NCBI GenBank assembly: GCA_017854795.1 | Contig: JAFMHB010000001.1 | Coordinates: forward strand, 80,606 to 144,605 | DNA: 64,000 bases | Source of the DNA: Candidatus Nanopelagicales bacterium | GTDB lineage: Bacteria > Actinomycetota > Actinomycetes > S36-B12 | Direction of reading: 5' to 3' | Shown here: positions 13,411 to 28,124 of the stretch, one piece after another | How the letters are laid out: each line of letters opens with the position of its first letter | Numbering within the stretch: position 1 is the first letter of the stretch | Notes under the pieces: generated by a model | Seen by the model: only the letters and a program-made list of their open reading frames with translations | Databases searched by the model: none | What the model was told of the DNA's origin: nothing | Made by a program: the position numbers and the translations under genes

Positions 13411-13653
13411 TTATCCGCCAGAAAATGGCGGCATAACATCAATGTGTTGCCCCGCACGAACATCGCAGTCGCCCGATCTTCCAAATGAATGACCGTCGAC
13501 AATGAAGGAACATTGAGGGATCACCGATGCCAAGCCAGGAATTTGTTGAATCAACTCTGCTTTAACTTCGACAAGGGATGCAGCTTCCACGGTGAGTGAA
13601 TTTTGCTGAGCTGCATGACGCGCCGCGGCATATAGATTTACCGTGACACTCAA
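13411..13653 (-). CDS. moaD: MoaD/ThiS-family sulfur-carrier protein
   Basis: 81 aa ending in the diagnostic C-terminal PFSGG. The TTG start at 13653 overlaps the upstream XdhC stop (TTGA), implying translational coupling. Confidence 0.7.
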   Translation of the reverse strand: MSVTVNLYAAARHAAQQNSLTVEAASLVEVKAELIQQIPGLASVIPQCSFIVDGHSFGRSGDCDVRAGQHIDVMPPFSGG

Positions 13654-14753
13654 CGCGGGGCACCTGGGTGAATTGGCCCGCTTGTGCGCGCGAGTGGTTG
13701 ACCACCACCGCCCCAGCGGTGTTGAACGATCTCGGCGCAAATACTGATTGCGGTTTCTTCGGGAGTGCGAGCGCCAATATCGAGTCCAATTGGTGAATGT
13801 ATGCGCGCAAGTTCAGAATCGGAAACTCCAGCCTCTCGCAACCGGGTCACTCGATCTTCGTGGGTTCGCCGCGAACCCATTGCACCTATGTAGCCAGCTT
13901 TGGTTCCTAATGCGACCTTGAGAGCGGGGACATCAAACTTTGGATCGTGTGTGAGGACAGCGATAACGGTTCGTTCATCAACTTCCTGTTGTTCAAGCCA
14001 GCGGTGTGGCCAATCAACTACAACCTGATCGGCCTCAGGAAAACGTTTGACCGTGGCAAAAATTGGGCGAGCATCGCAGACTGTCACGACATAACCGAGC
14101 ACTTTGCCAACTCTCACCAGAGCTGCTGAAAAATCGATGGCACCAAAAACAAACATTTGCGCAGGCGGGGCAAAGCTCGCAACGAATACGGTTAATCCTT
14201 CACCGAGGCGTTCACCCTCGGGTCCATATTCAATTGTTCCCGTGAGCCCTGCGGCCAACATGCCCAGTGCATCGTCTCGAACCGTGTCATTGAGGCGATC
14301 CGTCCCCAGTGAACCAGCCGTTGAATCAGGGTGAATCACTAAGTGTCGGCCAACAAAATGGGGACCCTTGATGATCGTTGCGATACAAACGGGATCACCT
14401 CGGTCAATCCGAGCGGCTACCTCAGGCAGTTCTGGCCAGGTGTCTTGATTTACTGGCTCAATAAAAACTTCCAGAATTCCGCCACAGGTCAGTCCTACCG
14501 CAAAGGCATCATCGTCACTGACCCCGTAATGTTCGAATCGGGGAGTGCCGTCTGCGATTACTTCGTTGCAGACTTCAAAGAGAGCACCTTCAACACAGCC
14601 GCCGCTAACACTGCCAACAGCTTCACCTTCGGGTGTGACCAGCATCGATGCTCCAGCAGGTCTGGGAGCGGAGCGCCAAGTTTGGACAACGGTGGCCATC
14701 GCAGCGCCACCAGATTGATGAGCGGCTAATAGTTCAGTGATTACTTCTCGCAT
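13650..14753 (-). CDS. XdhC/CoxI-family molybdoenzyme maturation factor (paralogue 1)
   Basis: 367 aa. N-terminal XdhC_CoxI domain (ATVVQTWRSAPRPAGASMLV...GSVSGGCVEG) and C-terminal Rossmann-like domain (FVFGAIDFSAAL...IGAMGSRRT). Confidence 0.85.
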   Translation of the reverse strand: MREVITELLAAHQSGGAAMATVVQTWRSAPRPAGASMLVTPEGEAVGSVSGGCVEGALFEVCNEVIADGTPRFEHYGVSDDDAFAVGLTCGGILEVFIEPVNQDTWPELPEVAARIDRGDPVCIATIIKGPHFVGRHLVIHPDSTAGSLGTDRLNDTVRDDALGMLAAGLTGTIEYGPEGERLGEGLTVFVASFAPPAQMFVFGAIDFSAALVRVGKVLGYVVTVCDARPIFATVKRFPEADQVVVDWPHRWLEQQEVDERTVIAVLTHDPKFDVPALKVALGTKAGYIGAMGSRRTHEDRVTRLREAGVSDSELARIHSPIGLDIGARTPEETAISICAEIVQHRWGGGGQPLARTSGPIHPGAPR

Positions 14754-14838
14754 CGTGATCCAAGTCTAAGTCCATTCCATGGAGTTATTCAAACAACTTG
14801 TATTGTGCCGCTGCTTGGCTATCATCCATTTATTCGCA

Positions 14839-15732
14839 ATGGGTCGATATGGGAACCAAATTCAGGAAGAGGTGATTGAGTTGTATGACATCGCTTTGAG
14901 TGTCGCAGCATGTGTTCGTTCGGGCACACGAGCGGATGTTGCCTGGATGGTGTTGCCGAATGCATCCGATCAAGCATTGGCCTTAACCCCGGGTGGAGGA
15001 AGGATTGGCCGGTTAGCATCCGGCGCATTTGATGGTTTGCTGACCGACGCGGCAGCCCGGCGCCTATCCACTGGTCGTCTGGTGGACCATGTAGTGAGTG
15101 AGATGGAAAGCCTCATTTGCGAACTCCCCGCAGGAACCCCCGTGCAGTTCCTTGTAGTTCCCGCGGAACAGTTCCCATCCCAGACTTGGTCACTTTTACT
15201 TAATCACAGTTCTTTGGTTGTTGTAGCGTCAATGTCGAAAGATATGGTTACGGCTATAAATATTGAGCCCGGCGGCGCAGATGCGCGACCGTTGGTTAAC
15301 GTGGAAATTGATTCAATTACAACGGTTCTCGCCCCAACCCCCCGATTGATAGTTGCGGGAGGCGGACCTGTCGCCGACGCGCTCGCCGCGCAGGCCGCCC
15401 TAATTAAATGGAAGGTTGTCATTGAGCCGCGCCCCGATGCGGTGGCAGGGCTGGCCGCCACCCTGTCTCCGGTCGATTCTGTGGTTGTGTTGGGTCATGA
15501 TGTCGAAGTTTCATCGGGGTGCCTGATGGCCGCTTTGGGAAGTGATGCGGGGTACATAGGGGCGCTGGGTTCGGTGGCAATGCAGAACTCCCGGGCCGAC
15601 TGGCTCGCTTATCGTGATGTGACGGATTTGTCCAGAGTACATGGACCTGCAGGTCTTGATATCAATGCTGCCACGCCCGAAGAAATTGCGGTCGCGATTG
15701 TGGCCGAAGCAATCGCGGTTCATCGGCAATAA
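14839..15732 (+). CDS. XdhC-family maturation factor (paralogue 2, divergent N-domain)
   Basis: C-terminal XdhC Rossmann-like domain (LIVAGGGPVADALA...YIGALGS...GPAGLDI). The N-domain is degenerate. Start ATG 14839 was chosen and is uncertain. Confidence 0.7.
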   Translation: MGRYGNQIQEEVIELYDIALSVAACVRSGTRADVAWMVLPNASDQALALTPGGGRIGRLASGAFDGLLTDAAARRLSTGRLVDHVVSEMESLICELPAGTPVQFLVVPAEQFPSQTWSLLLNHSSLVVVASMSKDMVTAINIEPGGADARPLVNVEIDSITTVLAPTPRLIVAGGGPVADALAAQAALIKWKVVIEPRPDAVAGLAATLSPVDSVVVLGHDVEVSSGCLMAALGSDAGYIGALGSVAMQNSRADWLAYRDVTDLSRVHGPAGLDINAATPEEIAVAIVAEAIAVHRQ

Positions 15733-16963: not shown

Positions 16964-17497
16964 ATGACTAGCCTCTATGACGAAGTACAGGCAGCGCCTG
17001 CTGCAGGAGTGGAAGTTCGCCGGATCACGGTAAATGTAAACGGAACGGATAGAACCGTTGATGTGGAACCACGACTCCTCCTCGCGCACCTGTTGCGCCA
17101 AGCATTGCAACTCACTGGAACGCACAGTGGTTGCGACACGTCCGGTTGCGGCGCATGTACGGTGTTGATGGATGGCCGTCCCGTTAAGAGCTGCACCGTA
17201 TTAGCGGTTCAGGCAAACGGTCGAGAAGTCGAAACGGTGGAAGGCCTTGCTACCGCAAGCGAATTGCACCCTATTCAAGAAGGATTCAAAGAGGAGCACG
17301 GTCTCCAATGCGGGTTCTGCACTCCCGGCATGATGCTCTCAGCCAAGGCGCTGCTGGAACGAAATCCCGATCCAACCGAGGATGAAGTTCGTTGGGCATT
17401 GTCTGGCAACCTGTGCCGCTGCACCGGCTACCAAAACATCGTTAAGTCAGTTCTTTGGGCTGCAAAGAAAATGCGCGAACAAAACCAGGAGGCATGA
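16964..17497 (+). CDS. coxS: CO dehydrogenase small ([2Fe-2S]x2) subunit CoxS
   Basis: [12 protein letters not shown] and CGFCTPGM...CRCTGY cluster motifs; 177 aa. Confidence 0.95.
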
Positions 17498-19878
17498 TGG
17501 CACCGCTCGACGAACTCAAAATTGGTGGCATGGGTGCGAGTCGCCGCCGTGTAGAAGACAACCGTTTCATCCGTGGTAAGGGTCGTTACGTTGATGACAT
17601 TGTATTGCCCGGAATGTTGCACGTGGAAATTCTGCGCAGCCCAGTGGCACACGCCCGCATTAAATCTATTGATACCAGTGCGGCTTGGGAGGTTCCCGGA
17701 GTTCGACTTGTCATGACCGGAGAGACCATGGCTGCTCGAAACCTGGCCTGGATGCCAACCCTTTCTTATGACACACAAGCAGTGCTCGCAACAGACAAGG
17801 TTCGTTTTCAGGGACAAGAGGTCGCAGCGGTTGTTGCAGACAACCCGTACATCGCCAGAGATGCACTCGACAAGATCGTGGTTGAATACGAACAGTTACC
17901 GGTTATTGTTAATCCGATTCAGGCTCAGAGCCCCGACGCACCCCTGATCCGCGACGACAAAGAGAACCAAACGTCAAATAAGATCTTCGATTGGGAGATT
18001 GGCGACAAGGAAGCAACCGACCGAGCTTTTGCGCAGGCAGATGTCGTGTCAAAGATTGATCTGCACTATCCCCGCTCTCATCCGTCCCCATTAGAAACCT
18101 GTGGCTCAATCGCGGATTATGATCGATCCAGCGGGAAATTAACCGTCTACATGACTTCGCAGGCACCTCACATTGTTCGAGCTGCGGTGGCCATGGTTGC
18201 TGAGTTACCTGAGCACATGATCCGGATTATCTCCCCCGATCTTGGTGGCGGATTTGGAAATAAAGTTCCCATCTATCCGGGATACGTTATTTCGATTCTT
18301 GCGTCAATCCTGACTGAACGCCCCGTCAAGTGGGTTGAAGACAAATCAAGTAACTTAATTTCTACCGGTTTTGGTCGCGATGTTTATCTTGAAGGAGAGT
18401 TGGCCCTTCGAAAAGATGGAAAAATCCTCGGAATGCGCATGCACACGATTTCTGATCACGGTGCCTTTTTCGCTGATGCTCAACCTACGAAGTTCAAAAT
18501 TGGTTTGATGCACTCAACATTTGCCTGCTATGACATACCTACCGGTCACCTTGTCAGTGAGGGCTACTACACGAACAAGGCTCCGGGAGGTGTGGCATAT
18601 CGATGCTCATTCAGGGTCACCGAAGCTATGTTTTTCCAAGAGCGAATGATGCATGCAGCGGCAAATGACCTCGGCATGGATCAAGCAGAGTTCCGTCGAG
18701 TGAACTTGGTCCGCGACGACATGTTCCCGTATCGCACCGCTTTTGGTTTCCTCACCGATTCCGGTCAGTACGAAAAATGCCTCGATGTTGGATTGGAGGC
18801 AATCGGGTACAGCACCTTCAAGCAGGAGCAAGAAGAAGCTCGTAAGCGCGGCAAGTTACTCGGTATTGGAATTTCAACCATGACCGAACCACTTGGTGCG
18901 GGAAATAGTCGGGAATACGACATCATCGGTATCAAGATGTTTGACTCCGCTGAATTGCGCGTGCACATGACAGGTAAGGCAATCCTGCGAACGGGCGCGA
19001 AGACTCAAGGCCAGGGTCACGAGACAACGTGGGCGCAAATCGTGGCCCACGAACTCGGAATTCCTGCCGACGACATTGTTGTGGAAGAAGGCGATACTGA
19101 CACGGCGCCGTTCGGAATGGGAACCTACGCATCTCGATCAACACCGGTCGCTGGTGCTGCCGTCGCTATGGCTTCTCGCAAGATTCGGGCTAAGGCACGC
19201 AAAATCGCAGCCCACCTTCTTGAGGTTTCTGAAGAGGATATTGAGTGGGAGTTAGGGCGGTTTTACGTTCGCGGTAATCAAGAACGCGGCGTGACCATTC
19301 AGGATTGTGCACTCGCCGCCTATAGCAATGTGCCAGACGGTCTGGAACCGGGATTAGAAAATACTTCGTACTACGATCCCCCCAACTTGACCTGGCCATT
19401 CGCAGCCTATTTCTGCAAAGTAGAAGTCGATGCACAAACTGGCGTATGGGATGTCTTGAACTTCGTTGCCGTGGACGACTGTGGTGTGCGAATCAACCCA
19501 ATGATTGTCGAAGGGCAGGTAATGGGTGGACTCACCGAGGCATACGCCATGGCGAACATGCAGTACATGACTTTCGACGAAGAAGGTAACTGCATTGGAG
19601 CTAACTACATGGACTACCTAATCCCCACTTCGTGGGAGACTCCTGGTTTTGAGTTGCATGAAGTGGTCACTCCGTGCCCGCACCATCCAATTGGGGCTAA
19701 GGGTGTTGGCGAATGCGCAACGGTGGCGGGGCCCGCCGCGTTCGTGAATGCTGTGATGAGTGCCATTGAGCACACAGGTGTTCGCAATGTTGACATGCCA
19801 CTCATGCCAAACCGTGTTTACCAGGCGCTGCAAACGGGGCAAGATGTCTCGGGAATGCCACCGGTTCTGAGCGACTAA
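17494..19878 (+). CDS. coxL: Form-I aerobic CO dehydrogenase large (Mo-Cu) subunit CoxL
   Basis: The start ATGATG overlaps the coxS stop. Active-site loop GVAYRCSFR is encoded at 18595-18615. 794 aa with molybdopterin-binding domains. Confidence 0.93.
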
Positions 19879-19879
19879 C

Positions 19880-20836
19880 ATGAAGGAAACGATCAGCGGT
19901 ATGGACGTCATGGAACTTGCGGTTCAACTCGCACGCACCGGGCAGTCCTATGCGCTTGCCACAGTTGTTTGGCGTAAGCCGCCTTCGTCGGGCCAACATG
20001 GTTCAAAAGCGGTGATCACCGCAGATGGTCAACTTCACGGCTGGATCGGTGGCGCATGTGCCGAGCCGGTTGTGATCCGAGAAGCAAAAAAAGTTCTTGC
20101 TGCAGGCGAGCCCTCTTTGATCTGGCTTGGTCAAGATGCTGATTTTGCTGGAATGCATGTCCCTGAGGGGGTCCTGACAATCCCCATGTCATGCCAAAGT
20201 GAAGGGGCACTACAGCTCTATATTGAGCCTGTTCTCGTGGCACCCGAAGTGGTGATTGTTGGGCGCTCACCCATGGCCATGACCCTGTTGGAATTAGTTC
20301 GCGGCGTTGGCTGGCAGGGCGAGTTAATCGATGGGTCGGCGTTCACTGCGGAAATGGTGCATTCGGGCAGCATCGTGATTGTGGCTACACAGGGGCACGG
20401 CGATGAAGAAGTTTTGGAGACTGCCTTGGGCGAAAGCCCCGCATTTGTTGGGCTGGTGGCCTCGGCCAAACGCGGTGAAGCAGTTCAGGGTTACCTGTTG
20501 GATCGTGGCGTATCACCGGAAAAATTGTCAACCGTTCACGTCCCGGTGGGCCTTGACTTGGGACACACCACGCACCGCGAAATAGCTGTGGCGATCCTCG
20601 GCGAATTAGTCCAAAGGCGCGCAGCGGGAGAATTACGACCGGTATCGATGAATCCTTCGATCAAGACCGAACCTGAAGAGGTTATTGACCTGGTCTGCAA
20701 TATGACGGTTGCCGCAGTCCCAGAAAACAGGCCATTCGATTATGACGGAGTTACGTACTACTTCTGCGCACCCGGGTGTCGGGTCGCGTTTGAAAAAGAT
20801 CCAGAAAAATTCATCAAGCGGGAGGTCACATGTTAA
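19880..20836 (+). CDS. XdhC/CoxF-like maturation factor fused to a C-terminal YHS (TRASH-type) metal-binding domain (paralogue 3)
   Basis: N-terminal ATVVWRKPPSSGQHGSKAVI...GWIGGACAEP (XdhC_CoxI), a Rossmann-like middle, and C-terminal DLVCNMTV...FDYDGVTYYFCAPGCRVAFEKDPEKF (YHS). It starts 1 nt after the coxL stop. Confidence 0.8.
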   Translation: MKETISGMDVMELAVQLARTGQSYALATVVWRKPPSSGQHGSKAVITADGQLHGWIGGACAEPVVIREAKKVLAAGEPSLIWLGQDADFAGMHVPEGVLTIPMSCQSEGALQLYIEPVLVAPEVVIVGRSPMAMTLLELVRGVGWQGELIDGSAFTAEMVHSGSIVIVATQGHGDEEVLETALGESPAFVGLVASAKRGEAVQGYLLDRGVSPEKLSTVHVPVGLDLGHTTHREIAVAILGELVQRRAAGELRPVSMNPSIKTEPEEVIDLVCNMTVAAVPENRPFDYDGVTYYFCAPGCRVAFEKDPEKFIKREVTC

Positions 20837-21433: not shown

Positions 21434-21688
21434 ATGAGTCTATGGATGCTGGGAAATCTTATTCTCCTGATTGTGGTGGTGCCATTGCTTGTGGCCCTGC
21501 TTAACCGGTTACTGGCAGCGCTCGAGCAAATTCGAGCTGCGGCGCAAGACACGCTTTCTGGTGGTGTTGCACTCATTGGTGCGTTGCACAACACGCCAGC
21601 GTTACTTGCAACAACAGATGATGTAATAAAAGAAGTAGCCAACGGTGCGGTGCGCTATGCCGGTCCGGTTTCTAAGTTGCTGGGATAG
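21434..21688 (+). CDS. Small bitopic membrane protein 1 of 5 (cox-linked array)
   Basis: 84 aa. RBS GGAGG lies 8 nt upstream. One N-terminal TM (LGNLILLIVVVPLLVALL) followed by an Ala/Leu/Thr-rich helical tail. 16 nt after coxG. Confidence 0.65.
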   Translation: MSLWMLGNLILLIVVVPLLVALLNRLLAALEQIRAAAQDTLSGGVALIGALHNTPALLATTDDVIKEVANGAVRYAGPVSKLLG

Positions 21689-21696
21689 GAGAAGTT

Positions 21697-21924
21697 ATGC
21701 CAATTGATGCAGTTATTACGCTCATTCTCGGGGCACTGATTATCGGTGCCGCTGCACTCGGTCTCGCGCGCGCGATAGGTCACCTTGCCGCGACTGAGAA
21801 GACCTTGGACACGCTCGACGGTGGAGTTCAGGTGATTGCTGCCCAGACCTCGACCGTTGTTCCGGTTGTCGCATCAGTTAATGCCAGTTTGGCCCCTGTC
21901 CGCGACTTTGCCAATTCGATTTAA
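21697..21924 (+). CDS. Small bitopic membrane protein 2 of 5
   Basis: 75 aa, RBS GGAG, TM ITLILGALIIGAAALGLA. The tail TLDGGVQVIAAQTST is similar to TLSGGVALIGALHNT in protein 1. 8-nt gap. Confidence 0.65.
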   Translation: MPIDAVITLILGALIIGAAALGLARAIGHLAATEKTLDTLDGGVQVIAAQTSTVVPVVASVNASLAPVRDFANSI

Positions 21925-21933
21925 GGAGGGTTC

Positions 21934-22188
21934 ATGGATTTCGCTGGACATGAAGGTTGGCTAATCGGTTACATCATTGGCCTTGTTGTCGTTCTCGTTG
22001 TTGTTGCGCTCGTTATTCCGATTCTGGTAATTGCATGGAAAATCGGTACGCAGGCTGGCAAAATTCTAACGGGGTTGGAGCAAGCTGAGACAAATACAGC
22101 TGGACTTGCCGGCCTCAACGAAACAATAACATCTGCATTGGCAGTCATCGCTGGGCTAAAACGCGGCCGTACAAGGTTAGGAGGATGA
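21934..22188 (+). CDS. Small bitopic membrane protein 3 of 5
   Basis: 84 aa, RBS AAGGAGGG, TM WLIGYIIGLVVVLVVVALVIPILVIA, tail KILTGLEQAETNTAGLAGLNETI. 9-nt gap. Confidence 0.7.
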   Translation: MDFAGHEGWLIGYIIGLVVVLVVVALVIPILVIAWKIGTQAGKILTGLEQAETNTAGLAGLNETITSALAVIAGLKRGRTRLGG

Positions 22189-22189
22189 C

Positions 22190-22465
22190 ATGGATGCCCA
22201 AACTGAACAGTTATGGATGATTGCAAACGTTCTAGGGATTGTGGTTGTTGTGGCTGTAGCCGCACTACTCACGCTCCTCGTAATATTTGTGCATCGCATT
22301 CACGTAAGGGTGGTAAAAATCAAGGCCACCCTAGAAGCAGCCAAGAACAACACCGCTGATACCGCACTCATTGGCGTCACCGCGGGTGGAGTGGAAGCAG
22401 TGTTGGCGGAGGGTCTTGAACATCATTTATTCCTCGGACGAGTACTAGACAAGGTGCGCTCATGA
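22190..22465 (+). CDS. Small bitopic membrane protein 4 of 5
   Basis: 91 aa, RBS AGGAGG, TM MIANVLGIVVVVAVAALLTLLVIFV. The tail KIKATLEAAKNNTADT parallels protein 3. 1-nt gap. Confidence 0.7.
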   Translation: MDAQTEQLWMIANVLGIVVVVAVAALLTLLVIFVHRIHVRVVKIKATLEAAKNNTADTALIGVTAGGVEAVLAEGLEHHLFLGRVLDKVRS

Positions 22466-22821
22466 GTTCATTGCAGTGGTGGTCAGTGATTGACGTTGCT
22501 CTGCTTATCGCAGGGTTAGCGGTGTACTTGTTCATCGTCGGATCGCAATTAAAGAAAGTTGCTGCGAATCTTGAAGAGTCAGCCGAATTAGTCTGGGCGA
22601 TTAAAAATGATGCTGCACTGATTGAGCCAGGCCTCACTTCAATAAACAGCACTGGTCGTGTTGTTGCTGGTGCTCTTCCCTTGCTGTACGGAATGGGGGA
22701 GGGGATAGTTGTTGGAGCAACTTTCGTGCATGAAGATCATGAAGCAGATGGTGTCAACCGTCCAGCAATGGGTACCAGGCGCTCGCGCATGATCGAGGCT
22801 ATGGGCGTCGACATAGATTAG
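22462..22821 (+). CDS. Small bitopic membrane protein 5 of 5, with a longer charged C-terminus
   Basis: 119 aa. ATGA overlap with protein 4. TM VIDVALLIAGLAVYLFIV, tail KKVAANLEESAELVWAIKND. Its stop overlaps the stop of the convergent 142-aa gene. Confidence 0.6.
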   Translation: MSSLQWWSVIDVALLIAGLAVYLFIVGSQLKKVAANLEESAELVWAIKNDAALIEPGLTSINSTGRVVAGALPLLYGMGEGIVVGATFVHEDHEADGVNRPAMGTRRSRMIEAMGVDID

Positions 22822-23246
22822 TTCGGCTTGCGACCGGTCGTGAGTGGATCGGTAACGGGGGCGTCGTAGCTTCCAATCCACTCGGCTTTCCAAGCTTTGT
22901 CAAACTTTTCTTCATTGCAACTTGGGTTGTAAACCGAAGCGAGATCGCGCGTTATCTGTTCTCTGTGCGAGCGATTGCTCCCGGGCGCATTGAGCCAGCA
23001 CACGTGCAGGTTGAACTTGCCACCAGCGCGCTCCAACCATGCGGCTGTTCTCGCGTGCTTGAAAGGAAACCCAACCTGTGAGAGGTCATCTGCATGTCCC
23101 ACGTAGATCACTGAAAATTCCTGTGAAGGCTCAGGCTTTGACTTGGTAAGGATGGCGTAAACAGCTGGCTCTTTTGGCGGAGTCCAGCCGGCAAGGGTCC
23201 GGGGGCCTTCAAAGGCGTAACCGGCCAAACTACCGAGTCGAATCAC
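22818..23246 (-). CDS. Hypothetical protein with a possible GIY-YIG-like core; last gene of the coxD-coxE operon
   Basis: 142 aa. ATGA-type 4-nt overlap with the upstream 98-aa gene. PAVYAIL...SVIYVGHADDL...HREQITRDLASVYNPSCNE resembles the GIY/YIG/R/E/N pattern. This is a by-eye assignment. Confidence 0.5.
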   Translation of the reverse strand: MIRLGSLAGYAFEGPRTLAGWTPPKEPAVYAILTKSKPEPSQEFSVIYVGHADDLSQVGFPFKHARTAAWLERAGGKFNLHVCWLNAPGSNRSHREQITRDLASVYNPSCNEEKFDKAWKAEWIGSYDAPVTDPLTTGRKPN

Positions 23247-23539
23247 TGAAGGTCACTATCCAGATCACCAAAGTCTTCGTCCTCACCGAGGGTTTCCACA
23301 CTGGTAACCGGCCACAAAGGAAGCGAAGTCTTTTCGACAGCTTGCGCGAACTGTTTTATCGCTTTATCTGCAGCTTCACTGGAGCCATCAGCTTCCACAA
23401 CTATTTGTGCGCCGTAACCCATGGTGCCGTAGCCGGAGGCGATTCCGTCCAATCCTGCGACAGCATCGGCTAATTCCACTACTTCTTCGAGAGTCACTTC
23501 GCGGTCACCCTCCGCCTGGATAGAAACACTGAATCTCAC
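23243..23539 (-). CDS. Hypothetical small acidic protein (predicted beta-alpha-beta ferredoxin-like fold), co-operonic with coxE
   Basis: 98 aa, starting 2 nt after the coxE stop. Alternating beta/alpha pattern (RFSVSIQAEG / TLEEVVELADAVAGL / GAQIVVEA / AADKAIKQFAQAVEK). Acidic tail EDEDFGDLDSDLQ. Confidence 0.55.
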   Translation of the reverse strand: MRFSVSIQAEGDREVTLEEVVELADAVAGLDGIASGYGTMGYGAQIVVEADGSSEAADKAIKQFAQAVEKTSLPLWPVTSVETLGEDEDFGDLDSDLQ

Positions 23540-23541
23540 GC

Positions 23542-24675
23542 TTATCTCACTTTCGAGAGTCGATTGGCTAGGTGCTCAAGGCTAGCAAGATTGTGACCTG
23601 AGTACACCTCGTCTATATAAGGTTCAGCGACAATCATGCCAAGTGATGCAGGTACATAATCCACGACATCGCCCTTATGCGGGTTGACCCAAATAACTCG
23701 GTATGCAATTCGCGAGAGGCTTTCCATAGCTTGCGATAGTGCCGCCGGTTCACCCCGGTCAAGTCCGTCAGAGCAAATAACAACAACGGCTCCACGGCCT
23801 AGTCGTGACCGGCGGGCGTCTTTGGTAAATTCCTTAATCGAGTCGCCGATTCGGGTGCCACCGTCCCAGTCGAATACCGATTCGCCAGCCAGACGCATAG
23901 CCTCATCAGGGTTACGGCGATCTAGGGATCGTGTGATGCGGGTGAGACGGGTTCCAAAACAAAAGACATCAACTTTGGCATTTGCTCGCCGCGCACAATA
24001 AGCAAACTGCAGGAGGTTGCGGGAGTAGTCCGCCATCGAGCCCGAAACGTCAAGGATCAGTACTAATGGACGTAACTTGTTCTTTCGTTTTTTGTAAGCA
24101 AGGTCGCGGGGCTCGCCAAGTTTGCGCATGCTCTCGCGCACCATGCGTCGAAGGTCGAGTCGGGCGGCCTTACGACTCCGAGTCGTCCGGTGAGTTCGGC
24201 GCACAGGCGGGGTAACGCGCATACGAGAGATCAGTTTTCGCACCTGGCGAATTTCGTCCTCGGAGCACTCGGAAAAAGCCTTATAACGATAAACGTCGGA
24301 GGTGCTCGCTAGGTAACCGAGTTTGACTTCATCGGGGCTGATATCACCGGGAACACCTTCTTCGGTGTTCGGAATCTCGAGGGTGGCGCCAACGGTAGAT
24401 GACGATCGAAGAGTGAGCTTTCGGGCGTCTTTGTTGGCTTCCTCGATGTCCAGAAAAAATAGTTTGAAGACCGCGTTGTAGATAGGGACTTGGTCTTGGC
24501 GCCGGATCATCGTGGCCCTACCAGCCCAGTAAACGTCCATCAGGTCGCTGACGTCGAGTTGGGAAACTCCTGAGCAGAAGGTCAATATGTCGTCTGAACC
24601 AATCGATATCCCCGCATGTCTGAGTGTCTGACCGAACTCCACGAGAAGTTCGTCGAACCCGCTAAGAGATGACAT
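23542..24675 (-). CDS. coxE: CoxE (vWA-domain CODH maturation protein)
   Basis: Start ATG 24675 (MSSLSGFDELLVEFGQTLRHAGI...) overlaps the coxD end by 14 nt. CoxE-type N-domain, and vWA MIDAS-like LVLILDVSGSM. Confidence 0.85.
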   Translation of the reverse strand: MSSLSGFDELLVEFGQTLRHAGISIGSDDILTFCSGVSQLDVSDLMDVYWAGRATMIRRQDQVPIYNAVFKLFFLDIEEANKDARKLTLRSSSTVGATLEIPNTEEGVPGDISPDEVKLGYLASTSDVYRYKAFSECSEDEIRQVRKLISRMRVTPPVRRTHRTTRSRKAARLDLRRMVRESMRKLGEPRDLAYKKRKNKLRPLVLILDVSGSMADYSRNLLQFAYCARRANAKVDVFCFGTRLTRITRSLDRRNPDEAMRLAGESVFDWDGGTRIGDSIKEFTKDARRSRLGRGAVVVICSDGLDRGEPAALSQAMESLSRIAYRVIWVNPHKGDVVDYVPASLGMIVAEPYIDEVYSGHNLASLEHLANRLSKVR

Positions 24676-25522
24676 CCTGAATACTTCGAGAGGCAAACTC
24701 CAAATCATCGCGATCCTTGACGACAGCACCGAGGGTATCAATTGCGACTTCAGCGGTAAGAGTTTTTGCACCTAGCGCGCTGACGCTTTCCGCCCAGTCA
24801 ATAGTTTCTGCTACGCCGGGAAGTTTCTCGAGATCCATCGCGCGAAGTCGATTGACAGCATGGACAACCTGATTCGCGAGAGCTGGGCCTATTTCTGGGA
24901 GTCTCGACCTAACAATCTCGATTTCGCGTTCGCTTTCGGGGAAGCCGATCCAGGTGTAAAGGCAACGGCGTTTGAGAGCGTCGTGCAGTTCCCGAGTTCG
25001 GTTCGAAGTAAGGATGACAATAGGCCGGGATTGCGCACTAATCGTTCCCACCTCGGGGATGGTAACTTGGAAATCACCAAGTAGTTCAAGAAGGAATGCT
25101 TCAAATTCGTCATCGGCTCGGTCGATTTCATCAATCAAGAGAACACATTGATCCCCTGCTCGAACGGCCTTGAGTAGCGGCCGCTCGAGCAGGAACCGCG
25201 GACCGAAAAGTTGTTCGTCAGAGGCGTCATCCGTGGCTAGGGAACGCACGAACAGCATTTGGCGGGCGTAGTCCCATTCGTACAGGGCTTGATGCATATC
25301 GATGCCCTCATAGCACTGCAGTCGAATTAAATCTCGGCCCAGCATCGTGGAAACAGTGCGAGCGAGTTCCGTCTTGCCAACGCCTACTTCGCCCTCAAGG
25401 AGCAAAGGTTTACCGAGTTTGAGTGACAGTAGTAGAGATGTCGTTAGACCACGATCGGCGATATAACCACGATCTGCCAGATCGCTGGTGAGCTGCGAAA
25501 CTGTTAGTTCTTCGAACGCCAT
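24662..25522 (-). CDS. coxD: CoxD (MoxR-class AAA+ ATPase for CODH active-site maturation)
   Basis: Walker A LLEGEVGVGKT, Walker B VLLIDEIDRA. 286 aa, MoxR-like, directly upstream of coxE. Confidence 0.9.
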   Translation of the reverse strand: MAFEELTVSQLTSDLADRGYIADRGLTTSLLLSLKLGKPLLLEGEVGVGKTELARTVSTMLGRDLIRLQCYEGIDMHQALYEWDYARQMLFVRSLATDDASDEQLFGPRFLLERPLLKAVRAGDQCVLLIDEIDRADDEFEAFLLELLGDFQVTIPEVGTISAQSRPIVILTSNRTRELHDALKRRCLYTWIGFPESEREIEIVRSRLPEIGPALANQVVHAVNRLRAMDLEKLPGVAETIDWAESVSALGAKTLTAEVAIDTLGAVVKDRDDLEFASRSIQDVIS

Positions 25523-25527
25523 GGAAG

Positions 25528-25776
25528 TTAGTCCACTTGGCCAAGGACGAGCTCACCCAGCGAGGCCGAACCGAGTTTGCCTTCTCTTGCCAGTTTGTTC
25601 TTCCAGGCGGTTGCCATGTCTACGCCCTCTTCGGCGAAGCCATCATATGAAACGTCTTTCATGTTCCGACACACCTTGTTCGGCGTACATTCCTCGTCCA
25701 TTTCAGTCATGGCTCCAGGAGTTCCCTGCCAAACGGCACGGAGGACCTCGGCTGCTTTTTCACTTTCGGTCGACAT
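25528..25776 (-). CDS. Hypothetical small protein heading the coxD-coxE operon
   Basis: 82 aa from ATG 25776 with AGGGAG 7 nt upstream. Ends 5 nt before the coxD start. No family recognised. Confidence 0.5.
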   Translation of the reverse strand: MSTESEKAAEVLRAVWQGTPGAMTEMDEECTPNKVCRNMKDVSYDGFAEEGVDMATAWKNKLAREGKLGSASLGELVLGQVD

Positions 25777-25842
25777 GGGCTGCTCCCTGGTTATGTGAGT
25801 CACCCAAGGTTACCAGCAGAATGAGACCTTCGCAGCCAGGTC

Positions 25843-25941: not shown

Positions 25942-27159
25942 ATGCTTAGCGTTGCGGAATACCTCGACCTTGTCCTTGACAGCGTCAGTGAACTTCCCGC
26001 GATGGAATTGCCCATCTCAGACGTGAATGGATGCGTACTTGCCCAAGATATTTATGCACGTTGGCCACTCCCTTCCTTCGATAACTCGTCAATGGACGGT
26101 TACGCGGTAATTGCCGCAGATTTGGCACATGCGAGTGAGAGTGTGCCGATTTCGCTACCCGTGATTGACGACATCCCTGCTGGGTTCAAGTCATTGGAAA
26201 CTTTGCAAAGTGGTCAGGCCATCCGAATTATGACCGGCGCCCCGATGCCAGCGGGCGCGGACAGCGTGATTCGTGTTGAGGACACTGATGGTGGCAGCGG
26301 GGTTGTCCGGATTCAGGTACCAATTGAGGTGGGAAGTTGTGTGCGTCGTGAAGGTGAAGACGTGCAGGCGGGTGACCTAGTGCTGACAAAGGGTACGTTC
26401 ATCGGTCCGCGTCAGATTGCTTTGATCGCGGCGGTGGGACACGGTGTCATTTCCGTGATCCCTAAGCCACGGGTTGCGGTTCTTGCGACAGGAAGTGAAC
26501 TCGTTGAACCTGGGACCGAGCTCAAGTACGGTTTGATTTCGGATTCAAATAGTTTCCTCATTACTGCAATTGCTAATGACAGTGGAGCCACCGCATACAG
26601 GCTTCCACCTGTACAAGATGACGAAGACGCGTTAATTGAGATCCTGCAGGACCAAGTGCACCGAGCTGACCTCATCATCACAACCGGGGGAGTGAGTATG
26701 GGTGCCTACGATCCCGTTAAATCTGCATTTCTGAAGCTGGGAACGGCCCAGTTTCACAAAGTGGCAATGCAACCGGGAATGCCACAAGGTTTCGGCAGTG
26801 TTGGTGAGCCTGCGATCCCGATCATCACACTTCCGGGTAATCCGGTGAGCGCTTATGTTTCCTTCGAGGTGTTCATTCGCCCGGCAATTCGCAAGATGCG
26901 GGGCTTGAAGCAGTTGGAGCGCCCGCATCGGTCGGCAACGTTGAAGGGTGAATTGCAATCACCAATCAACAAGGTGCAGTTTGCTCGAGGTCGCTTTATG
27001 GCCGAGGAGCAGGTTGAACTTGTGGGTACTGGACAGGGATCACATGTTCTTGGTGGACTCGCGCAAGCAGATGCACTCATTGTGATTCCGGTGGGTGTTG
27101 ACAGTATTACCAATGGAGAGCAGGTTCAGGTAATTGATGTGAGAGGTGATTTGACATGA
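25942..27159 (+). CDS. moeA: Molybdopterin molybdotransferase MoeA
   Basis: 405 aa. Motifs SFDNSSMDGYAV, ITTGGVSMGAYD and TLPGNPVSAYVSFEVF. Confidence 0.93.
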   Translation: MLSVAEYLDLVLDSVSELPAMELPISDVNGCVLAQDIYARWPLPSFDNSSMDGYAVIAADLAHASESVPISLPVIDDIPAGFKSLETLQSGQAIRIMTGAPMPAGADSVIRVEDTDGGSGVVRIQVPIEVGSCVRREGEDVQAGDLVLTKGTFIGPRQIALIAAVGHGVISVIPKPRVAVLATGSELVEPGTELKYGLISDSNSFLITAIANDSGATAYRLPPVQDDEDALIEILQDQVHRADLIITTGGVSMGAYDPVKSAFLKLGTAQFHKVAMQPGMPQGFGSVGEPAIPIITLPGNPVSAYVSFEVFIRPAIRKMRGLKQLERPHRSATLKGELQSPINKVQFARGRFMAEEQVELVGTGQGSHVLGGLAQADALIVIPVGVDSITNGEQVQVIDVRGDLT

Positions 27160-27635
27160 GCGCATTCCCGCATCTCAATGATCAAGGTGATGCCCACATG
27201 GTGGATGTGACCGCTAAGAGTGTCACCGAAAGATCGGCTACTGCTCGTTCTCGGGTTTCTATGAGCGATGAAGTTGTTAGTCGTTTGCGCGCAGGGGATA
27301 TGCCGAAAGGTGATGCATTTGCCGTAGCACGTATTGCTGCGATCTCGGCATCAAAAAAGACGAGTGAACTGATTCCGTTATGTCATCCGCTGGCAATCCA
27401 CGGTGTCAACGTTGATTTGTCACTTGATACAACGGGAGTCGAGATCACCGTGACGGTAAAGACCGCTGATCGGACCGGAGTTGAAATGGAGGCATTGACG
27501 GCCGCATCCGTTGGAGCCCTGGCACTCATCGATATGGTCAAAGGCCTTGATCGGCTTGCTCGTATTGAATACGTCGAGTTGTTGGAAAAAAAGGGTGGGC
27601 GCTCAGGCCATTGGATTCGCAGTGAAAATGAGTGA
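27156..27635 (+). CDS. moaC: Cyclic pyranopterin monophosphate synthase MoaC
   Basis: Motifs MVDVTAKSVTERSA, LIPLCHPL, DRTGVEMEALTA. 4-nt overlap with moeA. Confidence 0.95.
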   Translation: MSAFPHLNDQGDAHMVDVTAKSVTERSATARSRVSMSDEVVSRLRAGDMPKGDAFAVARIAAISASKKTSELIPLCHPLAIHGVNVDLSLDTTGVEITVTVKTADRTGVEMEALTAASVGALALIDMVKGLDRLARIEYVELLEKKGGRSGHWIRSENE

Positions 27636-27638
27636 ACA

Positions 27639-28124
27639 GTGAGCATGAGCAACTTCACGGCGCAGGTAATAACTGTTTCTACCCGGGGTTCCCAGGGCCT
27701 TCGAGCTGATACCTCCGGCGAAATCTTGGCAACAGCCTTGACCGAACTCGGTTTGGTTTGCTCACCCACGGTGATCATCGCTGATGGTCCGGGGGTATCC
27801 ACCGAGATTGTGCGAGCGGTTGAAACAGGTCACTCGCTCGTTGTGACAACCGGTGGCACGGGTATTTCGCCAACAGATCAAACGCCGGAGTTCACCCGGT
27901 CGGTGATAGACCGAGAAATACCGGGAATCGCGGAGGCGATTCGCGCTTATGGCCGTGGGAATGGGATTGCAACTGCATCCCTGTCCAGGGGAATCGCGGG
28001 GCAGTTGGCTAACTCACTGGTCATCAATGTCCCCGGTTCTCCCGGTGGCGCTCGCGATGCCGCCGCTGTCCTTGGGGAAATTGTGATCCATGCGCTCGAG
28101 CAAATAGCCGGATCAGATCACTAG
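27639..28124 (+). CDS. moaB: MoaB/MogA-family molybdopterin adenylyltransferase-like protein
   Basis: 161 aa. Motifs TTGGTGISPTDQTPE and PGSPGGA. GTG 27639 (or ATG 27645). Confidence 0.85.
   Translation: MSMSNFTAQVITVSTRGSQGLRADTSGEILATALTELGLVCSPTVIIADGPGVSTEIVRAVETGHSLVVTTGGTGISPTDQTPEFTRSVIDREIPGIAEAIRAYGRGNGIATASLSRGIAGQLANSLVINVPGSPGGARDAAAVLGEIVIHALEQIAGSDH

Follow-up and report, generated by a model that had tools for sequence, protein, structure and literature searches.

What do two uncharacterized genes contribute to an operon that is otherwise built around coxD and coxE? Aerobic CO oxidation by the molybdenum-copper (Mo-Cu) carbon monoxide dehydrogenase (CODH) is one of the major sinks of a trace gas relevant to climate, and the question arises from a 64,000-nucleotide stretch of Candidatus Nanopelagicales DNA (assembly GCA_017854795.1, contig JAFMHB010000001.1, positions 80,606-144,605, forward strand), referred to here as the window. 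On its minus strand lie, in this order, a small open reading frame (ORF) of 82 or 91 amino acids, coxD, coxE, a 98-amino-acid gene (p98) and a 142-amino-acid gene (p142). Here we report that p98 and p142 are conserved together with coxD and coxE, and that p142, while related in fold to the GIY-YIG nucleases, has lost both of their canonical catalytic residues. From the gene neighborhood we lean slightly toward both proteins being accessory factors of CODH maturation, with lower confidence in the details of how they would act.

The p142 gene (22818..23246, minus strand) has a GTG start and a TAA stop at 22818-22820 and encodes what is predicted to be a divergent protein of the GIY-YIG fold, extended at its C-terminus by a stretch specific to the family. 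The p98 gene (23243..23539, minus strand), also with a GTG start, encodes a small, soluble and very acidic protein predicted to be ferredoxin-like (beta-alpha-beta-beta-alpha-beta). A collection of 5.8 billion proteins contained 1030 homologs of p142 and 390 of p98. Their lengths are conserved, they are called "hypothetical protein" wherever the source gives a name, and their named sources are metagenome-assembled genomes (MAGs) of Nanopelagicales, Actinomycetes and Acidimicrobiales. Mean column identity is 65% for p142 and 71% for p98 in 32-sequence alignments reaching down to 60-65% identity, and 40 columns of p142 and 39 of p98 are invariant in alignments down to about 60% identity. Judged by their sequences, p98 and p142 are real genes. 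Neither matches a Pfam, NCBIfam, PADLOC or PHROG family, and neither has a tblastn match in 72,556 plasmid records, 52 of them with a CoxE-type VWA gene. The initial annotation, made from the sequence of the window, had placed both genes outside the canonical cox set, and this agrees with the absence of any counterpart of p98 or p142 among CoxB, C, D, E, F, G, H, I and K.

When one genome was scanned for each GTDB species, at least 585 stretches proved to encode a p142 relative. The best 80 of these were combined with five metagenome loci to give a set of 85, which are the closest relatives (at least 62% identity), and co-occurrence was counted only in those loci that extend far enough. On this basis p142 is accompanied by p98 in 85 of 85 loci, by coxE in 77 of 77, by coxD in 70 of 70, by the small ORF in 68 of 68, by coxL in 39 of 39 and by coxM in 33 of 33, so that the co-occurrence with coxD and coxE that the initial annotation had suggested looking for is complete in these loci. 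The block small ORF-coxD-coxE-p98-p142 converges on tm5...tm1 (the small membrane genes described below), coxG, (xdhC-YHS), coxL, coxS and coxM. Since the set takes in contigs of Acidimicrobiales/Ilumatobacteraceae and Nitriliruptoraceae, the arrangement spans three Actinomycetota classes (Nanopelagicales, Acidimicrobiia and Nitriliruptoria). Conservation of p142 equals that of known factors, with a median identity across loci of 68% for p142, 70% for CoxE and 69% for CoxG.

Down the unit, the junctions in the window are a 5-nt gap, a 14-nt overlap (with the coxE start at ATG 24675), a 2-nt gap and a 4-nt GTGA overlap; gene order and junctions had been described in this way before, and both the ORF list and the sequence bear them out. 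Elsewhere the coxE-p98 gap varies from 1 to 34 nt with a mode of 2, and the 4-nt p98/p142 overlap, of the form RTGA, is kept in 79 of 81 loci. This tight packing, conserved across loci beside the form I CODH cluster, upholds the earlier view of the five genes as one unit. The assignment to form I follows from CoxL of the window (17455-19878), which carries VAYRCSFR at residue 380, the AYXCSFR motif being the mark of form I CoxL (PMC4240915).

Some records in these collections need a word of caution. Apparent Rosetta-stone fusions of p98 and p142 (P0248, P0253, P0280 and P0289, one of them also with coxE) were rejected, as their R/P/A-rich out-of-frame stretches are frameshift artifacts of high-GC assemblies; these artifacts show that the family is also present in high-GC Actinomycetota. 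Contigs with this actinobacterial cox cluster were also found deposited as "Bifidobacterium breve" and "Flavobacterium sp." MAGs (L007, L085 and L063), names that are probably taxonomic mislabels or the result of bin contamination.

The p142 gene ends against the convergent operon. In the window its TAA overlaps the TAG (22819-22821) of a plus-strand gene at 22462..22821, the last of five small single-pass membrane genes, which ends the coxMSL-xdhC-coxG operon. The initial annotation had concluded that no room for a terminator is left between the two operons. That holds in the window but not in general: in 82 loci the two convergent stops lie a median of 24 nt apart, with an overlap in 13 loci and a gap of more than 700 nt (up to 824 nt) in two. 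The stop-stop overlap is a trait of the window's lineage. The five membrane genes stand in tandem after coxG (21434-22821, plus strand) and encode proteins of 84, 75, 84, 91 and 119 amino acids, of which the third and fourth are paralogous to each other (blastp E 5e-12), with a weaker relationship for the first; no Pfam family was found for any of the five. They are present in nearly all related loci (56/57 to 68/69) and are as lineage-specific as p98 and p142.

It could be argued from these counts that p98 and p142 have the five membrane proteins, together with CoxG, as their partners, perhaps in docking CODH to the membrane or in electron transfer, and share the coxDE transcript only for co-regulation. 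The membrane genes co-occur with p142 as strictly as coxD and coxE do, and they are equally lineage-restricted, with other CoxD-CoxE operons lacking both sets. However, the translational coupling of p98 and p142 is to coxE, on the strand opposite to the membrane genes; neither protein has a hydrophobic segment; and a divergent p142 relative, described below, sits with XdhC and molybdenum cofactor (Moco) genes, not with membrane genes. We regard this explanation as unlikely.

The next step concerns the nature of p142. Its GIY-YIG-like core (residues 10-112; 22911..23219, minus strand) includes AVY30 ("GIY"), IY48VG ("YIG"), H51, V58, H64, H94-R95-E96, T99 and C110-N111, with V58 and T99 occupying the slots of the lost Arg and Glu, and it is followed by the C-terminal extension (residues 113-142, KFDxAWKxEWIGxY...PLTT; 22821..22910, minus strand), which is found in the cox-linked clade only and is modeled with low confidence. 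By eye, the initial annotation had recognized in p142 the GIY / YIG / Arg / Glu / Asn spacing of GIY-YIG domains; the fold, the GIY and YIG elements and the Asn stand, and the Arg and Glu do not. An AlphaFold2 model consists of a strand at 28-35, a strand at 44-52, a helix at 67-74, a strand at 80-86 and a helix at 92-106, which is the GIY-YIG core order beta-beta-alpha-beta-alpha, a three-stranded sheet flanked by helices, at moderate confidence. The structural test that had been suggested for the GIY-YIG fold turned out in its favor: a Foldseek search of the PDB with this moderate-confidence model placed six UvrC GIY-YIG domains on top (E ~3e-3, probability 1.0, template modeling (TM) score by target length 0.55-0.60, 20-23% identity), and all later matches were noise with E > 0.19. 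When the model was compared with models of viral proteins, the named matches were mostly GIY-YIG endonucleases.

Several results count against this assignment. The model has a mean predicted local distance difference test (pLDDT) score of 65.8, only one of five models folded, and residues 114-142 score below 50. Pfam PF01541 has no match in p142 or 32 relatives, even at E up to 10; hidden Markov model searches of PDB sequences, with p142 either as a single sequence or as a profile, gave nothing usable; and a direct hhalign comparison of the cox-linked family with UvrC gave a probability of 4%. Since the direct sequence tests fail, the GIY-YIG call for p142 is transitive, by way of a sister clade, and structural.

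The sister clade was found by an exhaustive profile search of 1.8 billion representatives and consists of stand-alone proteins of ~110 amino acids from Nostoc, Terriglobia and others. By hhalign the p142 clade and the stand-alone clade are related at 99.9% probability (E 2e-33) over 111 columns, covering p142 residues 7-117, and the stand-alone clade aligns in turn with the Thermotoga UvrC GIY-YIG domain (sequence identical to 1YCZ) at a probability of 69.8%, with the clade's GxY, IYxG, Arg, Glu and Asn placed exactly on UvrC Y19, Y29, R39, E76 and N88. Weak Pfam GIY-YIG matches were seen in 3 of 14 members of the stand-alone clade, all of them sub-threshold (best E 0.016). Profile matches of this clade to protein A repeats were set aside as spurious repeat matches. 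Taking together the UvrC Foldseek matches and the hhalign chain through the stand-alone clade, we accept p142 as very probably a divergent member of the GIY-YIG fold superfamily.

The best structural match, the UvrC GIY-YIG domain (PDB 1YCZ / 1YD6), shares with p142 the strand-strand-helix-strand-helix order. Also conserved, and in register by way of the sister clade, are the Tyr of "GIY", the Tyr-x-Gly of "YIG" and a C-terminal Asn that follows the long helix. Compared with UvrC, p142 has one more strand at its N-terminus (LAGYxFEGPR) and, at its C-terminus, an extension of 30 residues rich in Trp; its genomic context is not one of DNA repair, and it lacks a PF01541 match.

To what extent is p142 still a nuclease? 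Catalytic columns were counted in 125 cox-linked and 60 sister-clade sequences, with the register taken from two hhalign alignments (p142 to sister clade and sister clade to UvrC), so that the canonical Arg column is the YIG Tyr plus 10 (UvrC R39) and the canonical Glu column is the Asn minus 12 (UvrC E76). The Arg slot, V58 in the window, is filled in the cox-linked clade by E (96 sequences), V (18), A (5) or Q (3), with R or K in 0 of 125; in the sister clade it is R in 48 of 60 (80%). At the Glu slot, T99 in the window, the cox-linked clade has A (39), S (37), T (25), C (15), V (6) or K (2) and never E or D (0/125), and the sister clade has E in 52 of 60 (87%). The initial annotation had taken the catalytic Arg and Glu to be in place at H94-R95-E96, a reading that fails, as these residues lie outside the catalytic columns. 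R95 aligns with an Arg (Asn minus 16) that both clades have without exception and UvrC lacks. With both canonical columns lost, p142 is best termed GIY-YIG-fold-derived and not a GIY-YIG nuclease; as far as sequence can tell, it has a GIY-YIG fold from which the canonical catalytic dyad is missing, and is not an evident nuclease.

Other landmarks of the fold have been kept to different degrees. Of the 125 cox-linked sequences, 115 have Y and 10 have F at the "GIY" Tyr (Y30; F in 3/60 of the sister clade), 102 have Y and 22 have F at the "YIG" Tyr (Y48; F in 4/60 of the sister clade), and 105 have G at G50. The slot of UvrC K32 holds His in the cox-linked clade and mostly Glu in the sister clade. 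The Asn, N111 in the window, is found in 125 of 125 cox-linked and 59 of 60 sister-clade sequences. Near-invariant in the cox-linked clade are H51, D54, H64, R73, H81, H94-R95-E96-Q97 and E101, and within the extension, which is absent from the ~110-residue stand-alone clade, W119, W123, I124, G125 and Y127 are invariant. From the loss of the catalytic Arg and Glu, together with this conserved set of its own and the extension, we infer that p142 binds and does not cut. We also considered whether the invariant Cys110 has a role involving persulfide or metal, and did not adopt this idea, because the Cys is equally invariant in the sister clade outside cox loci and so is not specific evidence.

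One aspect of the geometry tells against a purely binding protein: the conserved E96 is one turn of the helix ahead of the lost Glu, and K/R63, H64 and R73 lie near the lost Arg, so that, going by these positions, p142 may have a remodeled but active site. If so, it could still be a nuclease or RNase with a shifted site, E96 and either K/R63 or R95 standing in for the Glu and Arg, that processes the overlapping cox transcripts or regulates cox mRNA. Such an activity would fit the supported GIY-YIG fold and the retention of Asn111, H64, R95-E96 and, mostly, the two Tyr residues, and antisense RNA is to be expected in the window's lineage, where the convergent operons overlap. It accords poorly with the complete loss of both canonical columns when the sister clade has kept them, with the replacement of the motif Tyr residues by Phe in 8% and 18% of cox-linked members, and with the lack of an attached DNA- or RNA-binding domain. 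Moreover, p142 is always present, while the stop overlap is missing from most loci, given the median gap of 24 nt and gaps of up to 824 nt. An active nuclease is in our judgment improbable, and we retain the binding role for p142.

The relatives of p142 outside cox loci have different gene contexts. Members of the stand-alone clade (e.g., Nostoc linckia VF14_21780, P0301, and proteins from Terriglobia) share with p142 the FxGP...W.PP, GxYA and IYxG motifs, an invariant His and Cys-Asn, and differ from the cox-linked clade in having kept the canonical Arg and Glu and in lacking the C-terminal extension. Their genes are monocistronic and found in variable, mobile-looking contexts (integrase, Abi_alpha, methyltransferase and regulatory genes) with no cox genes nearby. 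A divergent p142 relative, P0438 (L094 8001-8450, 51% identity), has kept the C-terminal extension and lacks H51 and the H-R-E motif. Its gene adjoins a MoCF_biosynth-XdhC fusion, MoaE and MoeA and lies near RuBisCO and phosphoribulokinase genes, without an adjacent p98 or coxD/E. One shorter p142 relative has an unrelated gene context.

These surroundings raise the question of whether the five-gene unit is a conflict or defense-type MoxR-vWA system with a GIY-YIG effector that merely sits beside the CODH genes. MoxR-vWA pairs have been exapted as switches for effector-bearing conflict systems that derive from CoxD-CoxE (Kaur et al. 2020; PMC7159879), GIY-YIG domains are common effectors, and the stand-alone relatives of p142 are near integrase, Abi and methylase genes. 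Yet no PADLOC or PHROG family matches p142, p98, p91 or CoxE, and the supposed effector no longer has its catalytic residues. CoxE is a plain CoxE-type VWA protein (VWA_CoxE, its one significant domain, at residues 185-398 of 409, reaching to the C-terminus) with no C-terminal effector and no third VMAP/iSTAND component. The unit also provides the sole coxD-coxE pair in the cluster, and its position relative to form I coxMSL-coxG is fixed across three classes, unlike that of mobile defense islands. We consider a conflict system highly improbable, and a part in CODH maturation remains the reading that we follow.

For p98, the initial annotation had described a beta-alpha-beta-beta-alpha-beta pattern with an acidic tail, and the AlphaFold2 model (pLDDT 89.3) reproduces this description, with the fold followed by a disordered tail. 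The tail (residues 84-98, LGEDEDFGDLDSDLQ; 23246..23290, minus strand) is conserved while its pLDDT falls to 51-76; within it E86, D87 and D89 never vary, and conservation at D92 and L93 is at least 90%. The composition is extreme, with 21 D+E vs 5 K+R and no Cys or His, and these properties argue against direct handling of soft metals by p98. Fold searches returned only generic ferredoxin-like matches (BMC-H, PII, S6 and ACT; E >= 6e-3, TM 0.4-0.5), and profile searches revealed no sequence relationship to any family. BMC-H shell proteins, PII, ACT and ribosomal S6 have the beta-alpha-beta-beta-alpha-beta sandwich in common with p98, but the matches are weak and unspecific and p98 was filed under none of them; it differs from such ferredoxin-like domains in its GDRE loop, GIASGxGTxGYGAQ loop, TxLPxWP motif and acidic tail. 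An HMA-type copper chaperone was also considered and rejected, given the lack of Cys and His and of any HMA protein among the top 50 fold matches.

How might the two proteins act together? The metal ion-dependent adhesion site, or MIDAS, of VWA and integrin I domains typically captures an acidic side chain of the ligand. CoxD and CoxE are needed for sulfuration of CODH and for insertion of Cu, and the role of coxD, coxE and coxF in assembly of the [CuSMoO2] site has been shown by genetics and metal analysis (PMC4240915), with cluster-maturation factors still missing according to Pelzmann et al. (PMC4240915). MoxR-VWA pairs are established maturation chaperones, which remodel metalloenzymes or load them, and a mycobacterial cox-linked pair interacts physically (PMC12657314). 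In CoxD-CoxE-CoxF of Oligotropha carboxidovorans, as in CbbQ-CbbO and NorQ-NorD, a MoxR-type AAA+ protein and a MIDAS-bearing VWA protein are encoded with the target metalloenzyme, as they are here, and the XdhC-type proteins in the window add to the likeness with the Oligotropha system.

In the mechanism we propose, the small ORF, coxD, coxE, p98 and p142 would form a five-gene, translationally coupled operon standing tail-to-tail with the form I Mo-Cu CODH cluster of aquatic Actinomycetota, and p98 and p142 would serve, as accessory subunits or adaptors restricted to the lineage, the CoxD-CoxE (MoxR AAA+ / VWA) machine by which the [CuSMoO2] site of CoxL is completed. The p142 protein would descend from a stand-alone protein of the GIY-YIG nuclease type, having lost its catalytic Arg and Glu and gained a conserved set (H51, H64, R73, H81, H94-R95-E96 and E101) along with the Trp-rich C-terminal extension. 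Its work within the CoxD-CoxE assembly would be to bind a partner protein or else a ligand, either a metal or one bearing phosphate, with no cutting of nucleic acid. The invariant acidic tail of p98 (EDEDFGDLD) would dock at a site that is either cation-dependent or basic, for which the MIDAS of CoxE and the pore of CoxD are the most plausible candidates. A bolder form of this proposal, in which a domesticated GIY-YIG fold serves as a non-nucleolytic MoxR-VWA subunit and p98 plugs the CoxE MIDAS, the two representing a "missing factor" for the Mo-S-Cu site in the most abundant freshwater Actinomycetota, is offered tentatively, and we think it less probable than not.

Four points weigh against the proposed role. 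It derives from gene neighborhood. The more distant members of the family lie largely outside the sample of 85 loci. The five membrane genes, by their equally strict co-occurrence, may be the true functional partner in place of CoxD and CoxE. Finally, p98 and p142 are absent from the 52 plasmid/replicon CoxE records and from Nonomuraea, where the coxD-coxE pair is followed by a 344-amino-acid ORF and a MobA-like transferase, and so the pair is not generally required for CODH maturation. This absence from other CoxD-CoxE operons makes p98-p142 a lineage-specific addition outside the general cox set. A literature search for GIY-YIG together with CODH returned no relevant paper, and the cox-cluster papers found contain no mention of p98 or p142. 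The unit is a known type of operon to which two lineage-specific components, not described before, have been added, and one of these is an apparently inactivated nuclease fold.

The remaining genes of the unit are of recognizable types. The coxE gene (23542..24675, minus strand) encodes a VWA_CoxE protein (Pfam PF05762, E 8.4e-51) with an intact MIDAS motif, DVSGS. Its longest ORF is 23542..24771, and the start is probably the ATG at 24675 (Met33), giving 377 amino acids, with other loci called at 375-388. The coxD gene (24662..25522, minus strand) encodes a MoxR-type AAA+ ATPase (Pfam AAA_5 and AAA) with Walker A (GVGKT) and Walker B (LLIDEID) motifs. Among NCBIfam models, CoxD best matches the "MadB family AAA-type ATPase" (E 4.9e-83, 279 bits), far below the cutoff of 475, and the best match of CoxE is "MadC family VWA" at 70 bits, far below the cutoff of 600. 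A literature search on the MadB/MadC names led to a lantibiotic dehydratase, which is unrelated. First in the unit is a gene (25528..25803, minus strand) that encodes 91 amino acids from a GTG or 82 from Met10 at 25776 and has no Pfam or NCBIfam match; its product has two Cys, and it lies upstream of coxD in all 68 loci that reach that far. Scans of 21.0-26.5 kb found no promoter-like sites vs 2.9 expected, two weak terminator-like sites vs 4.6 expected, and no Rfam RNA family.

The wider cluster has further genes linked with the molybdenum enzyme. An XdhC-family gene lies between coxL and coxG (19880-20836, plus strand), and its product has a C-terminal Cys-rich YHS/TRASH-type domain (Pfam YHS in the L001 and L004 homologs), a domain content that suggests a copper-handling XdhC. 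In several loci (e.g., L015, L018 and L022) this gene is not found between coxL and coxG, and coxG abuts coxL. Two more XdhC-family genes lie upstream of coxM (13650-14753, minus strand, and 14779-15732, plus strand), which brings the cluster to three XdhC paralogs, and moeA, moaC and mog follow the coxD operon at 25942-28124.

Nanopelagicales and related lineages (acI) dominate freshwater bacterioplankton. Assembly of the unique [CuSMoO2] site is only partly understood, and two unannotated families locked to coxD-coxE may bear on this question. The p142 family alone comprises ~1000 sequences from at least 585 species-level genomes, and since current annotation is "hypothetical protein" throughout, both families merit family models. 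If our reading of p142 is correct, it would be one of the rare instances in which a GIY-YIG nuclease fold has been put to another use with its catalytic residues gone, and the stand-alone clade, in which these residues are kept, set against the cox-linked clade, in which they are lost, makes a clean evolutionary test case for exaptation. If p98 and p142 do take part in maturation, they would provide new handles on the CODH maturation pathway.

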